The notes under the pieces were generated by a model. That model made no database searches. It was not told the origin of the DNA and saw only the letters and a list, made by a program, of their open reading frames with translations. A DNA stretch of 64,000 nt from Escherichia coli (GTDB lineage: Bacteria > Pseudomonadota > Gammaproteobacteria > Enterobacterales > Enterobacteriaceae). Location: NCBI RefSeq assembly GCF_016903815.1, contig NZ_CP069973.1, one strand, 5' to 3'. Position 1 is the stretch's first letter; each line of letters opens with the position of its first letter. Positions 1 through 46,121 of the stretch are shown in pieces. The translations under genes were made by a program, and so were the position numbers.

Positions 1-1087
1 CCCGTGAACTCAGCCTGTATGAATCACAGCTCTACAACTGGCGCAGTAAACAGCAAAATCAGCAGACGTCTTCTGAACGTGAACTGGAGATGTCTACCGA
101 GATTGCACGTCTCAAACGCCAGCTGGCAGAACGGGATGAAGAGCTGGCTATCCTCCAAAAGGCCGCGACATACTTCGCGAAGCGCCTGAAATGAAGTATG
201 TCTTTATTGAAAAACATCAGGCTGAGTTCAGCATCAAAGCAATGTGCCGCGTGCTCCGGGTGGCCCGCAGCGGCTGGTATACGTGGTGTCAGCGGCGGAC
301 AAGGATAAGCACGCGTCAGCAGTTCCGCCAACACTGCGACAGCGTTGTCCTCGCGGCTTTTACCCGGTCAAAACAGCGTTACGGTGCCCCACGCCTGACG
401 GATGAACTGCGTGCTCAGGGTTACCCCTTTAACGTAAAAACCGTGGCGGCAAGCCTGCGCCGTCAGGGACTGAGGGCAAAGGCCTCCCGGAAGTTCAGCC
501 CGGTCAGCTACCGCGCACACGGCCTGCCTGTGTCAGAAAATCTGTTGGAGCAGGATTTTTACGCCAGTGGCCCGAACCAGAAGTGGGCAGGAGACATCAC
601 GTACTTACGTACAGATGAAGGCTGGCTGTATCTGGCAGTGGTCATTGACCTGTGGTCACGTGCCGTTATTGGCTGGTCAATGTCGCCACGCATGACGGCG
701 CAACTGGCCTGCGATGCCCTGCAGATGGCGCTGTGGCGGCGTAAGAGGCCCCGGAACGTTATCGTTCACACGGACCGTGGAGGCCAGTACTGTTCAGCAG
801 ATTATCAGGCGCAACTGAAGCGGCATAATCTGCGTGGAAGTATGAGCGCAAAAGGTTGCTGCTACGATAATGCCTGCGTGGAAAGCTTCTTTCATTCGCT
901 GAAAGTGGAATGTATCCATGGAGAACACTTTATCAGCCGGGAAATAATGCGGGCAACGGTGTTTAATTATATCGAATGTGATTACAATCGGTGGCGGCGG
1001 CACAGTTGGTGTGGCGGCCTCAGTCCGGAACAATTTGAAAACCAGAACCTCGCTTATGCCTGTGTCCATATTACGTGGGTAGGATCA
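1..1087 (+). mobile_element. IS3: IS3 insertion sequence, 5' part cut by window edge; right inverted repeat ends ...CCATATTACGTGGGTAGGATCA at 1087
   Basis: orfA/orfB protein and DNA match recalled IS3 (InsE/InsF); terminal IR recognised at 1066-1087; window starts about 170 bp inside the element. Confidence 0.85.
3..194 (+). CDS. insE: IS3 OrfA (InsE) transposase N-terminal subunit, 5'-truncated by window start
   Basis: Frame 3 reads [63 protein letters not shown] then TGA at 192-194; overlaps orfB start as expected for the -1 frameshift arrangement. Confidence 0.8.
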
Positions 1088-1117
1088 GAACTCCATCCAG
1101 TCGTTTGGGGTTGCTAA
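191..1117 (+). CDS. insF: IS3 OrfB (InsF) DDE transposase; the recalled native stop position (1055-1057) reads TAT here, so the ORF runs 20 codons further, through the IS end into flanking DNA
   Basis: 308-aa [35 protein letters not shown]... identical over the recalled 288 aa of InsF apart from one K/Q difference; DDE integrase core ([18 protein letters not shown]). Confidence 0.85.
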
Positions 1118-1664
1118 TGACGTCCTGCATCCGCTTAATCTGGTCGGGCGTAGACATATAATCCCACAGGGTGAGCAGAACCTTTTTTGCGGCTACACTA
1201 TTTCCCTGATCTGATACTAATGCCATATAGCCCCATAAACTATCCCTCAGCCAGACACCATCATAGTGGGTTTCTGCCGCTGTTTTGTCATCTTCGAAAG
1301 TAGAAGCAAGAATAAATGTTCCCCAGGGTTTCTCCGTCAACGTTAACTTTCGTGTGTTTTCTGTTAATGTTAACAACCCTTGAATTTCGTCTTTGGTATA
1401 GTGGCTCTTTATTTCATTTTTTAATTTGGCTGAGTGAATCAAAAGACGATAATTAGGATACTTATCTGGATTTAACGATAAATAACTTTTATCTGTTGCT
1501 GCCCCCGTGGAATTAAGAATGTTAAATACAGATTCACTCGTCACTTCTGCCCCTGTCGCCTGGCATGTGCCGCACGAAAATATACCAGCGAGCAGAAGAG
1601 TTAATGCAGATTTCCCTTTCATAAAATATTCCATCAATCGTTTGTTAAAAGCGTAGATAACCAC
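1088..1664 (-). pseudogene. Putative secreted/lipoprotein gene (possibly the K-12 ygeQ-like gene of the glyU-adjacent island), C-terminally truncated by the IS3 insertion
   Basis: ORF MKGKSALTLLLAGIFSCGTCQATGAEV... with N-terminal signal peptide; reading frame runs straight into the IS3 right end at 1087, last residues are IS-derived; identity of the family not verified. Confidence 0.5.
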
Positions 1665-42237: not shown

Positions 42238-42431
42238 TCAATATTCCTTTTCAACTGACTCAAAATGGAGAAATACACTCCGCCGCCTTATGACGGGCAG
42301 TCTGACAAGGGTAAACAATAAAGCATAATTTTGCCAAATAGATCACAGATTTCTCATCTGAATCACCTTGCTTTTGGCGAAAAAATCCCCGCAGAGCGGG
42401 GCTCAGACAGATATCAATGTGCGCTTTGTCA

Positions 42432-42529
42432 TGCCGGATGCGGCGTGAACGCCTTATCCGGCCTACAAAAACCTGCAAATTCAATATATTGCAGGATACG
42501 TGTAGGCCTGATAAGCGTAGCGCATCAGG
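42432..42529. repeat. BIME: two inverted REP units with central spacer, mscS-fbaA intergenic
   Basis: GCCGGATGCGGCGTGAACGCCTTATCCGGCCTAC ... GTAGGCCTGATAAGCGTAGCGCATCAGGC. Confidence 0.8.
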
Positions 42530-42594
42530 CAATTTTGCTTTTGGCGAAAAAAAGACCCGCAGAGCGGGCCTTGAGATAAGCAGAAAGGAATATC

Positions 42595-43674
42595 TTACAG
42601 AACGTCGATCGCGTTCAGTTCCTGGAATGCTTTCTCCAGACGAGCGATCATCGAAGTCTGACCGGCACGCAGCCATACGCGCGGATCGTAGTATTTCTTG
42701 TTCGGCTGATCTTCGCCTTTCGGGTTACCCAGCTGACCCTGCAGATAAGCTTCGTTCGCTTTGTAGTAGTTCAGAACGCCTTCCCAGGTTGCCCATTGGG
42801 TATCGGTATCGATGTTCATTTTTACTACGCCGTAGCTTACGGAGTCTTTGATTTCCTGAGCAGTAGAACCGGAACCACCGTGGAATACGAAGTTCAGGCT
42901 GTTGTGCGGCAGGTTGTGTTTCTTGGAAACATATTCCTGAGAATCACGCAGGATGGTCGGAGTCAGAACCACGTTACCCGGCTTGTAAACACCGTGTACG
43001 TTACCGAAGGACGCTGCGATGGTGAAACGCGGGCTGATTTTGCTCAGTTCGGTGTATGCGTAATCAACGTCTTCCGGCTGGGTGTACAGTGCAGAAGCGT
43101 CCATGTGGCTGTTGTCCACGCCGTCTTCTTCACCACCGGTGCAACCCAGTTCGATTTCCAGAGTCATGCCGATTTTGGACATGCGCTCCAGGTATTTAGA
43201 GCAGATTTCGATGTTCTCTTGCAGAGATTCTTCAGACAGGTCGATCATGTGAGAAGAGAACAGCGGCTTACCGGTAGCTGCGAAGTGTTTTTCACCCGCG
43301 TCCAACAGACCGTCGATCCACGGCAGCAGTTTCTTCGCGCAGTGGTCAGTGTGCAGGATAACCGGAACACCATAATGTTCAGCCATCTGGTGAACGTGAT
43401 GCGCACCAGAGATCGCGCCCAGGATAGCAGCACCCTGCGGAACGTCAGATTTCACGCCTTTACCAGCGATAAAGGAAGCACCACCGTTGGAGAACTGAAC
43501 GATAACCGGCGCTTTAACTTTAGCAGCGGTTTCCAGTACGGCGTTGATGGAGTCAGTACCGACGCAGTTTACTGCTGGCAGTGCGAAGTTGTTTTCTTTT
43601 GCTACCTGGAAAACTTTCTGTACGTCATCACCAGTGATTACGCCAGGTTTTACGAAATCAAAAATCTTAGACAT
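42595..43674 (-). CDS. fbaA: Fructose-bisphosphate aldolase class II; start at MSKIFDFVKPG
   Basis: 359-aa protein matching FbaA; Zn-binding His motifs. Confidence 0.96.
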   Translation of the reverse strand: MSKIFDFVKPGVITGDDVQKVFQVAKENNFALPAVNCVGTDSINAVLETAAKVKAPVIVQFSNGGASFIAGKGVKSDVPQGAAILGAISGAHHVHQMAEHYGVPVILHTDHCAKKLLPWIDGLLDAGEKHFAATGKPLFSSHMIDLSEESLQENIEICSKYLERMSKIGMTLEIELGCTGGEEDGVDNSHMDASALYTQPEDVDYAYTELSKISPRFTIAASFGNVHGVYKPGNVVLTPTILRDSQEYVSKKHNLPHNSLNFVFHGGSGSTAQEIKDSVSYGVVKMNIDTDTQWATWEGVLNYYKANEAYLQGQLGNPKGEDQPNKKYYDPRVWLRAGQTSMIARLEKAFQELNAIDVL

Positions 43675-43700
43675 GTCTCTTGTCCTGTATCGTCGGGCCT

Positions 43701-43786
43701 TATACTCGTCATACTTCAAGTTGCATGTGCTGCGTCTGCGTTCGCTCACCCCAGTCACTTACTTATGTAAGCTCCTGGGGATTCAC
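43701..43786. repeat. ERIC/IRU partial element (about half of the 127-bp consensus) in pgk-fbaA spacer
   Basis: ...GTTCGCTCACCCCAGTCACTTACTTATGTAAGCTCCTGGGGATTCAC matches the conserved ERIC arm. Confidence 0.7.
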
Positions 43787-43888
43787 TCTCTTGTCGCCTT
43801 CCTGCAACTCGAATTATTTAGAGTATGAAAAATTGCGTGCTCTAAAAGCGCGCTGAAACAAGGGCAGGTTTCCCTGCCCTGTGATTTT

Positions 43889-45052
43889 TTACTTCTTAGC
43901 GCGCTCTTCGAGCATCGCTACTGCAGGCAGTACTTTACCTTCCACGAATTCGAGGAATGCGCCGCCGCCAGTGGAGATGTAGGAGATTTTGTCAGCAATG
44001 CCGAACAGGTCGATTGCTGCCAGAGTGTCGCCGCCGCCAGCGATGGAGAACGCTTCGCTGTCTGCGATAGCGTTAGCCACGATTTCAGTACCTTTGCGGA
44101 AGTTCGGGAATTCGAACACGCCAACCGGACCGTTCCACAGAATGGTTTTCGCATTCTTCAGGATTTCAGCCAGTTCCTGAGCGGAAGCATCACCGATATC
44201 CAGGATCTGCTCGTCAGCTTTCACATCGTTAACAGATTTCAGGGTAGCCGGTGCAGTTTCAGAGAACTCGGTTGCTACGCGAACATCAGACGGAACCGGG
44301 ATGTTGCAGGTGGTCAGCAGACGTTTAGCTTCGTCAACCAGGTCAGCTTCGTACAGGGATTTACCCACATCGTGGCCTTGTGCCGCGATAAAGGTGTTAG
44401 CGATACCACCACCAACAATCAGCTGGTCAGCGATTTTAGACAGGGAGTCCAGAACGGTCAGTTTGGTAGATACTTTAGAACCACCAACGATAGCCACCAT
44501 CGGGCGAGCAGGTTCTTTCAGTGCTTTACCCAGCGCGTCCAGTTCAGCTGCCAGCAGCGGGCCTGCGCACGCAACGTCAGCGAATTTACCGATACCGTGA
44601 GTAGAAGCCTGCGCGCGGTGAGCAGTACCGAATGCGTCCATTACGAACACGTCACACAGTGCAGCGTATTTTTTGGACAGGGTTTCGTCGTCTTTCTTCT
44701 CGCCTTTGTTGAAGCGAACGTTTTCCAGAACAACCAGTTCACCTTCAGCAACGTCAACGCCGTCGAGGTAATCTTTAACCAGACGAACCGGGTTAGACAG
44801 TTTGTCTTTCAGGTAGTTAACAACCGGCAGCAGAGAGAATTCTTCGTTGTACTCGCCTTCGGTAGGACGACCCAGGTGGGAAGTTACCATCACTTTTGCG
44901 CCTTGTTTCAGGGCCAGTTCGATGGTCGGCAGAGAAGCACGGATACGCGCGTCGCTGGTTACTTTCCCGTCTTTTACTGGTACGTTCAGATCCGCACGGA
45001 TAAATACACGTTTCCCAGCAAGATCCAGATCGGTCATCTTAATTACAGACAT
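43889..45052 (-). CDS. pgk: Phosphoglycerate kinase; start at [15 protein letters not shown]
   Basis: 387-aa protein matching Pgk. Confidence 0.96.
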
Positions 45053-45101: not shown

Positions 45102-46121
45102 TTACCTGAAAGCAACAGTAGCCATAGCTAACGTCGTGTCGAGCATTCGGTTAGCAAAGCCCCATTCGTTATCGCACCAGACCAACGTTTTGATCAGGTG
45201 TGCGCCACTGACCCGGGTTTGGGTGCCATCGACAATGGCACTGTGCGGATCGTGGTTAAAATCTACAGAGACCAACGGCAATTCCGTATAGTCAACTATA
45301 CCATGAAATGCACCTTGTGCTGCTTTTTGCAGCAACAGGTTGACTTCATTGGCTTTTACAGGTTTCTTCACCGTCACGCTTAAATCGATTGCCGTCACAT
45401 TTATGGTTGGCACACGTACCGCAATCGCTTCAAAGCGATCGTTAAATTGCGGAAAAAATCGTGTGATACCGGCGGCCAGTTTAGTATCGACCGGAATGAT
45501 CGACTGGCTGGCTGCCCGGGTGCGACGCAGGTCAGGATGGTATGCATCAATAACCTGTTGATCGTGCATGGCGGAGTGAATTGTGGTCACAGTGCCGGAC
45601 TCAATACCGTACGCATCATCTAACAATTTGATGACGGGAATTATGCAATTCGTGGTACAGGAAGCGTTAGAAACGATGCGGTGTTCCGCACCAAGTTGAT
45701 CCTGATTGACGCCGTAAACAACGGTCGCGTCGAGATCGTTACTGCCAGGATGTGAAAAGAGCACTTTTTTGGCCCCGGCGGCAATATGCGCTTCGCCATG
45801 CTCGCGGGAGCCATATACGCCGGTGCAGTCGAGGACTACATCAACGCCAAGTTCACGCCAGGGGAGCGATTGCAGTGAACGTTCATGCAATACGCGGATG
45901 GCGTCATCACCAACAAAAAGTTGATCGCGTTCCTGTCGTACTTCCCATGCAAAACGGCCATGGCTGGTGTCATATTTCAACAAATGCGCCATGCCCGCAG
46001 CATCCGCCAGTTCGTTGATTGCCACCACGGTAATTTCCGCCCGGCGTCCGGATTCATACAAAGCACGAACCACATTACGCCCGATGCGACCGAAGCCATT
46101 TATCGCTACGCGTACGGTCAT
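45102..46121 (-). CDS. epd: D-erythrose-4-phosphate dehydrogenase; start at [15 protein letters not shown]
   Basis: 339-aa GAPDH-family protein; catalytic SNASCTTNC. Confidence 0.94.

Follow-up and report, generated by a model that had tools for sequence, protein, structure and literature searches.

The 214-nt spacer between pgk and fbaA (positions 43675-43888) of this E. coli sequence contains a complete, ordinary ERIC copy, and the hairpin formed by the core of that copy coincides with an abundant RNA 3' end. The kind of element is already known; modest novelty lies in the finding that ERIC core hairpins coincide with two 3' ends left unexplained in a published Term-seq survey, this one and another in the aceF-lpd spacer. 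We regard it as probable that the element arose by insertion at a TA, is co-transcribed with its neighbours, and through its core hairpin marks an RNA 3' end or exonuclease barrier with a small net effect. ERICs are in daily use for strain typing, and the biology of those in E. coli is ill defined. The pgk-fbaA copy belongs to one of the most thoroughly studied glycolytic operons, the three enzymes of which are produced in very different amounts; a literature search for an ERIC at pgk/fbaA (fda) returned nothing relevant. Positions refer to the window, the whole 64-kb stretch of DNA analysed. The 2.9 kb checked around the locus are identical to E. coli K-12 MG1655 (NC_000913.3), and adding 3,027,570 to a window coordinate gives the MG1655 coordinate. 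The features of the locus are as follows.

42595-43674, minus strand: fbaA coding sequence.
43675-43700, minus strand: conserved fbaA leader AGGCCCGACGAUACAGGACAAGAGAC, found in all Enterobacteriaceae spacers examined.
43683-43686, minus strand: fbaA Shine-Dalgarno sequence AGGA, within the leader.
43701-43827, minus strand: complete ERIC, 127 nt (nhmmer, consensus identity, V_AS5 alignment).
43701-43702, minus strand: TA flanking dinucleotide, right target-site copy; the left copy (43826-43827) reads CA.
43702-43725, minus strand: 3' outer arm, terminal inverted repeat, pairing with the arm at 43803-43826.
43743-43786, minus strand: ERIC central core, made up of the primer sites ERIC1R and ERIC2 (44 of 44 positions match, with no chance match expected).
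43744 (MG1655 3071314), minus strand: Term-seq 'orphan' RNA 3' end (Adams et al. 2021, Supplementary file 1).
43749-43780, minus strand: core stem-loop CCCCAG..GCUUAC-AUAA-GUAAGU..CUGGGG (inverted repeat I4; pairs kept across the family).
43803-43826, minus strand: 5' outer arm, terminal inverted repeat (inverted repeat I1; paired in the MFE structure, with compensatory changes in the family).
43835-43853, minus strand: second small hairpin GCGCGCUUUUAGAGCACGC of the ancestral spacer (fold, inverted repeat I2), also present in ERIC-less spacers of relatives.
43861-43880, minus strand: pgk-proximal hairpin GGGCAGG-GAAA-CCUGCCC followed by UUGUU, a leaky intrinsic terminator (inverted repeat I7, terminator scan).
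43889-45052, minus strand: pgk coding sequence.
45102-46121, minus strand: epd.

A sequence-only reading of this DNA had placed a half-ERIC at 43701-43786, quoting the 43-mer GCTCACCCCAGTCACTTACTTATGTAAGCTCCTGGGGATTCAC as the conserved ERIC arm. The 43-mer is exact on the plus strand at 43744-43786, and the reading was right that the epd-pgk-fbaA transcription unit contains an ERIC, placed after the pgk hairpin and before fbaA. What it quoted is the central inverted-repeat core rather than an arm. On the minus strand the 44-mer GTGAATCCCCAGGAGCTTACATAAGTAAGTGACTGGGGTGAGCG at 43743-43786 consists of the reverse complement of the ERIC-PCR primer ERIC1R joined to primer ERIC2, with 0 mismatches; it occurs once in the window and gave 0 matches in 100 shuffles. 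The two primer sequences co-occur in 233 papers, according to a literature check.

The whole element measures 127 nt (43701-43827) and lies on the minus strand, the sense of the pgk-fbaA mRNA, ending 26 nt before the fbaA ATG. An nhmmer model built from 35 distinct-locus ERIC copies (alignment A1) matched 43827-43701 on the minus strand over model positions 2-128 (E=8.7e-39), the sole ERIC in the window. Compared with the consensus of 62 copies, the pgk-fbaA copy is identical at 118 of 126 positions, end to end; in that alignment its length is 126 nt, which is also the modal ERIC length. The full collection comprised 122 copies in 47 distinct genomic contexts, drawn from a metagenome scan with the core 17-mer and from loci already retrieved, and conservation across the family drops to background beyond ATAC...GTATA. 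Like other ERICs, the copy is an imperfect palindrome of about 127 bp with a central inverted repeat. Its outer inverted arms (43702-43725 and 43803-43826; 24 nt, 79% complementary) flank the core as terminal inverted repeats, and the terminal pairs ATAC(C/T/A)C and G(G/A/T)GTAT co-vary among ERIC copies. A truncated copy can therefore be set aside with near certainty: the proposal of a half element came from recognition of the core alone by eye, and the full-length alignment includes both outer arms. The check that had been named for it, alignment to ERIC beyond the 44-bp arm, gives a good match over the full length, so that the ERIC stands and the 'half' falls. The interval first assigned covers only the fbaA-proximal two thirds of an element that extends to 43827, and the pgk hairpin, which had been put at 43852-43876, is located at 43861-43880.

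Within the family, the copy belongs to an E. coli-specific subtype, ATACTC...GACGCAGCAC...GAGTAT, which it has in common with the copy at cusC-cusF. Rfam holds no ERIC family, and its closest model is V_AS5 (RF02818) of Vibrio; this aligns over its full 129 positions at 43709-43828, at 38.9 bits against a gathering threshold of 96, so the element is not a member. The 3' half of the ERIC is open in frame with fbaA and gives a spurious 387-aa ORF, which can mislead gene callers.

The distribution of the element is that of a mobile sequence. Most Enterobacteriaceae examined have spacers of 66-109 nt without an ERIC, in a scan for FbaA, one genome per species, that covered 80 of 596 candidate loci, with Salmonella and E. 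fergusonii outside it. ERIC-less spacers are 88 nt long in C. werkmanii, 87 in Kluyvera, 92 in E. cloacae, 97 in Pseudocitrobacter, 83 in Phytobacter, and 97 in K. pneumoniae. These empty spacers share the pgk hairpin, the second small hairpin, and the leader AGGCCGAAGATACAGGAC; the pgk hairpin shows compensatory changes across genera (GGGCAGG/CCTGCCC versus AGGCGGG/CCCGCCT). At the insertion point the empty sites have a single TA, for example TTTTT-TA-AGGCCCGACG in Phytobacter and TTTTC-TA-ACGGCC in E. cloacae. Family copies mostly read T-ATAC...GTAT-A, and the E. coli copy has an intact TA on the right and CA on the left, flanks that would fit a TA target-site duplication followed by one substitution. 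Copies are dispersed through the genome (median of 6 megablast places per E. coli genome), and other K-12 or E. coli copies include those at cusC-cusF (99% identical), aceF-lpd, and ahpC-ahpF.

Within E. coli the ERIC at pgk-fbaA is essentially near-fixed: the spacer was found at a coverage of at least 80% in 5417 of 5426 complete genomes. Variation of the spacer within this population is too sparse for an analysis of structure-preserving substitutions. In three strains of E. albertii the spacer is 142 nt long and contains the same element minus its central 72 nt, with the outer stem kept; the insertion is therefore older than the split of these two species. Between them, 4 of 58 positions in the retained arms differ, counted by eye, and third codon positions of fbaA are 91.7% identical. 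Divergence of the retained arms is thus about that of the third codon positions and, on this comparison, looks neutral. The loss of the whole core hairpin in E. albertii indicates that the core is dispensable in the sister species, an observation that counts against a strong role.

Two further lineages have a full ERIC at the equivalent pgk-fbaA position in the same orientation: Citrobacter sp. FP75 (L003, 3848-3974) and a metagenome-assembled genome of a soil Enterobacteriaceae (L013, 3849-3971; E=4.5e-12). The FP75 copy is 76% identical to the E. coli copy and 83-86% identical to copies at other loci, and for the E. coli copy the identity with ERICs elsewhere in E. coli, such as the one at cusC-cusF, is 98-99%. 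Each is nearer to copies from elsewhere than to the other, and independent insertions or concerted evolution are therefore favoured. A single old insertion is still compatible with the divergence, because third positions of fbaA are only 78.6% identical between E. coli and FP75. The flanking dinucleotides of the FP75 and soil copies are degraded, which suggests that these insertions are old. Another candidate pgk-fbaA ERIC (L162), put forward on ORF geometry, was rejected: its downstream ORF starts MNLHEYQAKQLFARYG, and its neighbours match neither Pgk nor FbaA. The locus is probably sucB-sucC. A tblastn search with AhpC among the retrieved loci gave no match.

The mRNA-sense strand of the pgk-fbaA ERIC folds at -48.9 kcal/mol (z=-6.05), compared with -40.9 for its complement, and the core alone at -20.9 kcal/mol (z=-5.2). 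For the full 214-nt spacer the predicted energy is -77.1 kcal/mol (z=-7.3), and within that fold the ERIC forms a module of its own. RNAalifold on alignment A1 returned a consensus hairpin of 30 pairs, 19 of which have compensatory changes. Paired positions across the family (columns fixed by the search pattern excluded) contain 56 G.U cells versus 8 A.C cells; the consensus-sense strand therefore pairs better, and at this locus that strand is the sense of the mRNA running from pgk to fbaA. For the ancestral hairpin at 43835-43853, an alternative pairing is predicted in which it joins the 3'-terminal part of the pgk coding sequence. Predicted accessibility of the fbaA ribosome-binding site is nearly the same with the ERIC (mean unpaired probability 0.543) as without it (0.538).

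Published data place the element inside a transcribed region. Using 5' RACE with fbaA primers, Olvera et al. (2009) found no promoter in the 214-nt spacer and described fbaA as dependent on upstream promoters; our promoter scan likewise found no sigma-70-like site in the spacer. Because the spacer shows no promoter of its own, the ERIC is most likely transcribed as part of the pgk-fbaA mRNA. The original reading had asked where fbaA transcripts start relative to the element; 5' RACE detected no start site within the spacer, and Term-seq 3' ends fall inside the element. Levels of pgk and fbaA RNA shift in parallel.

The Term-seq survey of MG1655 by Adams et al. (2021), conducted under three conditions, lists a 'primary' pgk 3' end at 3071427, or window position 43857, which corresponds to the pgk hairpin plus UUGUU. 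This end was represented by 46,373 reads in LB at OD 0.4 and 45,215 reads in M63 (Adams et al. 2021). The same survey lists an 'orphan' 3' end at 3071314, with 24,316, 48,771, and 35,983 reads in LB at OD 0.4, LB at OD 2.0, and M63, respectively; these counts are comparable to those of the pgk terminator end, and the assignment to 43744 relies on the authors' uniquely aligned reads among ERIC copies that share 98-99% identity. The end falls on the C of ...CUGGGGUGAGC, 5 nt past the last CUGGGG pair of the core stem, and this position forms the closing pair in the centroid fold. The core is thus a stable stem-loop with a reproducible RNA 3' end at its 3' foot, as in a REP-like barrier. No U tract follows the core stem (the downstream sequence is UGAGCGAACGCAGAC), the terminator scan of the locus returned only the pgk hairpin at 43861-43880, and the Adams et al. 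(2021) listing has no Rho termination region near 43744. We considered the core as an intrinsic (Rho-independent) terminator and rejected it; a GC-rich hairpin with a U tract is not what the core presents.

A second sense-oriented ERIC, with its end 30 nt upstream of the lpd ATG, occupies the aceF-lpd spacer. An analogous 3' end at this ERIC, at 127845, was scored as Rho-independent by Adams et al. (2021). All six Term-seq entries that carry an ERIC core carry it in the sense orientation (0 antisense). ERIC is not mentioned by Adams et al. (2021), and the link of the 3071314 and 127845 ends to ERICs is not drawn there.

Intercistronic stem-loops of the REP/BIME type can shield an upstream cistron from 3' exonucleases, and the steps by which the pgk-fbaA ERIC might do likewise can be set out in order. 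In the ancestor of E. coli and E. albertii, the spacer, then about 88-97 nt long, received an ERIC at a TA. Polymerases passing the leaky pgk terminator would then transcribe it within the pgk-fbaA mRNA, in its best-folding orientation, producing a long, self-contained imperfect hairpin. After an endonucleolytic cut further downstream, 3'-to-5' exonuclease trimming would most probably stall at the core stem, and the element would serve to halt exonucleases or to divide the message into a pgk part and an fbaA part. Judging from predicted accessibility, the fbaA ribosome-binding site would be left untouched. A regulatory role of this sort is plausible and would be modest; any net change in the pgk:fbaA expression ratio would probably be small. 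The earlier suggestion that the ERIC acts through RNA structure is plausible and gains partial support from the 3' end at the foot of the core hairpin; the differential effect on pgk and fbaA that went with it is hypothetical. The end at 43744 could also be a passing decay intermediate.

Alternatively, the element would be a neutral passenger, a selfish insertion that became fixed with no consequence for expression, and its 3' end a by-product of decay pausing at a stable hairpin. We think this somewhat doubtful and nevertheless a serious possibility: E. albertii tolerates deletion of the core, divergence of the retained arms looks neutral, predicted access to the ribosome-binding site is unchanged, and most related species have no element at all. 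Against it are near-fixation in 5417 of 5426 E. coli genomes, a 3' end as abundant as that of the pgk terminator in three conditions, and the same site and orientation in three lineages, none of which is proof of selection. A further position is that ERIC core hairpins are domesticated modules that form 3' ends or stabilise message segments before very highly expressed genes (fbaA, lpd), and that selection explains why three subtypes in three lineages occupy one TA, all in one orientation. We hold this to be unlikely; alternatively, an integration hot spot or chance would account for occupation of the same site, and we treat the three lineages as a curiosity.

Other readings give the element an active part in transcription or decay. 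Non-canonical termination or pausing at the ERIC hairpin, limiting read-through into fbaA, would be in keeping with the position of the 3' end, at the base of a hairpin of -21 kcal/mol, and with the lack of a listed Rho region. Such attenuation is improbable nonetheless: the stem has no U tract and is followed by GAACGCAGAC, and fbaA has no promoter of its own, yet its 3' end tops the read counts at the locus, so read-through must be efficient. Still less likely, to the point of being very improbable, is destabilisation of pgk mRNA of the kind ascribed to Yersinia ERICs, in which ribosomes finishing pgk would block folding of an ERIC in B orientation and expose an RNase E site in its right-hand arm. 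The destabilising Yersinia copies reportedly have the B (opposite) orientation and touch or overlap the stop codon of the gene before them; a literature search on B-oriented ERICs gave only noise. The pgk-fbaA copy differs on both counts: it is in the sense orientation, which we take to correspond to the A type, and it starts 61 or, in another count, 62 nt past the pgk stop codon, behind two hairpins and beyond the reach of a terminating ribosome. Of the ERIC copies found no more than 2 nt from a stop codon, 5 are antisense and 1 is sense, and the K-12 copy at ahpC-ahpF abuts its stop codon in antisense. What speaks for the Yersinia mechanism is that co-transcribed ERICs there reportedly lower upstream transcripts in an orientation-dependent manner (De Gregorio et al. 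2005, as reviewed by others). An internal fbaA promoter at the ERIC junction is the weakest of these candidates and can be given hardly any credence. The insertion did form a TATAAG hexamer at the junction of ERIC and flank (43699-43704), against which the promoter scan found none, the best -35 at 17-nt spacing matches 2 of 6 positions, and 5' RACE with fbaA primers detected no start in the spacer.

We therefore retain, as the probable reading, a co-transcribed ERIC whose core hairpin marks an RNA 3' end or exonuclease barrier. If a stable 3' end and segmentation of the message are confirmed, the locus would show in nature how a mobile repeat can set the proportions of central-metabolism enzymes, and ERIC cores would account for two 3' ends that a public transcriptome resource leaves unannotated.

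Among known systems, the closest is the ERIC / IRU / RU-1 family itself (Sharples & Lloyd 1990; Hulton et al. 1991; Wilson & Sharp 2006), of which the pgk-fbaA copy is a member with no essential difference. It shares with the family the 127-nt imperfect palindrome, the exact conserved core, the terminal inverted repeats, and, on the right side, the TA flank, as well as a transcribed intergenic site, many copies, and presence or absence among related species; the one departure is that the left flanking TA reads CA. The Vibrio antisense RNA AS5 (Rfam RF02818, V_AS5) has the same hairpin layout as the pgk-fbaA ERIC, and this resemblance suggests that the V_AS5 family is itself ERIC-like. The Yersinia ERICs (De Gregorio et al. 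2005) are reportedly likewise co-transcribed between the genes of operons, form an RNA hairpin, and act in a manner in which orientation matters. The Correia/NEMIS elements of Neisseria are also mobile repeats with terminal inverted repeats and TA flanks that are co-transcribed and form a long hairpin; they differ from ERIC in having an unrelated sequence. They are reported to be RNase III substrates (De Gregorio et al. 2002), and the pgk-fbaA ERIC is not known to be cleaved by RNase III. A published RNase III site at ahpC-ahpF was considered as a case of ERIC cleavage and rejected, lying 62 nt outside the ERIC at that locus. For the proposed role the nearest parallel is that of the REP/BIME elements (Higgins et al. 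1982), in which a repeat-derived stem-loop inside an operon is likewise a place where RNA 3' ends accumulate; the pgk-fbaA ERIC differs from them in belonging to another repeat family and in forming a far longer composite hairpin.

Within window 43675-43758 (minus strand), the 3' half of the pgk-fbaA ERIC is an open reading frame continuous with fbaA. Because this half is open in frame, the mechanical fbaA ORF starts at GTG 43758 and runs to 387 residues, as compared with 359; a 399-residue 'aldolase' from the protein cluster (P0125) may be a similar over-extension. Two further features were noted.

Window 43835-43914, minus strand: an extended stem that would enclose the stop codon of pgk, from an inverted repeat and fold prediction.
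Window 42370-42575, minus strand: fbaA terminator GGCCCGCTCTGCGGGTCTTTTTTTCGCCAAAAGCAA, two REP-type palindromes and near-duplicate terminator GAGCCCCGCTCTGCGGGGATTTTTTCGCCAAAAGCAA, in that order, 3' of fbaA.

In the predicted extended stem, the final pgk codons (GCUCGAAGAGCGCGCU) are able to pair with AGCGCGCUUUUAGAGC, located 3' of the terminator hairpin; on this fold model, a terminating ribosome would open the stem. Both this terminator hairpin of pgk and the small hairpin are kept across genera, with compensatory changes. Downstream of fbaA, the near-duplicate terminators form a direct repeat of ~35 nt that brackets the REP pair. Rfam returned an ES036/CssrF match above threshold (47.3 bits) and a partial naRNA4 match within the same region, and both terminators have Term-seq 3' ends, at MG1655 3070119 and 3069950 (Adams et al. 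2021).

ERICs were also located in other intergenic spacers, including the K-12 ahpC-ahpF spacer.

Locus L206 (MG1655 638500-640800), positions 1009-1134, minus strand: ERIC in the ahpC-ahpF spacer.

This copy directly abuts the ahpC stop codon (TAA followed by ATTTCC...) and its orientation is the reverse of the pgk-fbaA copy; the reported RNase III site at MG1655 639695 is 62 nt outside the ERIC. The ERIC in the E. coli aceF-lpd spacer (L083, a metagenome locus) is of a different subtype from the pgk-fbaA copy and ends 30 nt upstream of the lpd ATG. Since lpd is transcribed from a promoter of its own, 5' of the repeat, we take this ERIC to lie within the lpd 5' UTR. It also has its own Term-seq 3' end, scored as Rho-independent, at MG1655 127845, 67 nt upstream of lpd (Adams et al. 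2021).

Further intergenic ERICs inside operons were observed in E. coli cusC-cusF (L084) and in a metagenome locus (L162) whose gene pair we read as sucB-sucC. The cusC-cusF and pgk-fbaA elements are 99% identical, although the pgk-fbaA ERIC is older than the split between E. coli and E. albertii. Such identity suggests that copying or gene conversion has taken place recently among E. coli ERICs.

Structural variants of the element were found at eight loci, all from metagenomes (L089, L093, L114, L145, L176; L091, L132, L192). Some have an additional internal block 3' of the core, GACAAATCTG...GAACGCTGCT.GCAGCGGC, and others have a GC-rich sequence, GCGCTGGCCCCGAAGGGGCGAGGCC..., in place of the 5' arm; we assume these to be the long-insertion and hybrid forms of the literature. 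Likeness to a described RNA family was found in Rfam, where V_AS5 ('Vibrio RNA AS5'; gathering score 96 bits) aligned over its full length to the E. coli ERIC at window 43709-43828, minus strand (38.9 bits, E ~1e-6), an alignment that suggests the V_AS5 family was built on a Vibrio ERIC-like repeat.
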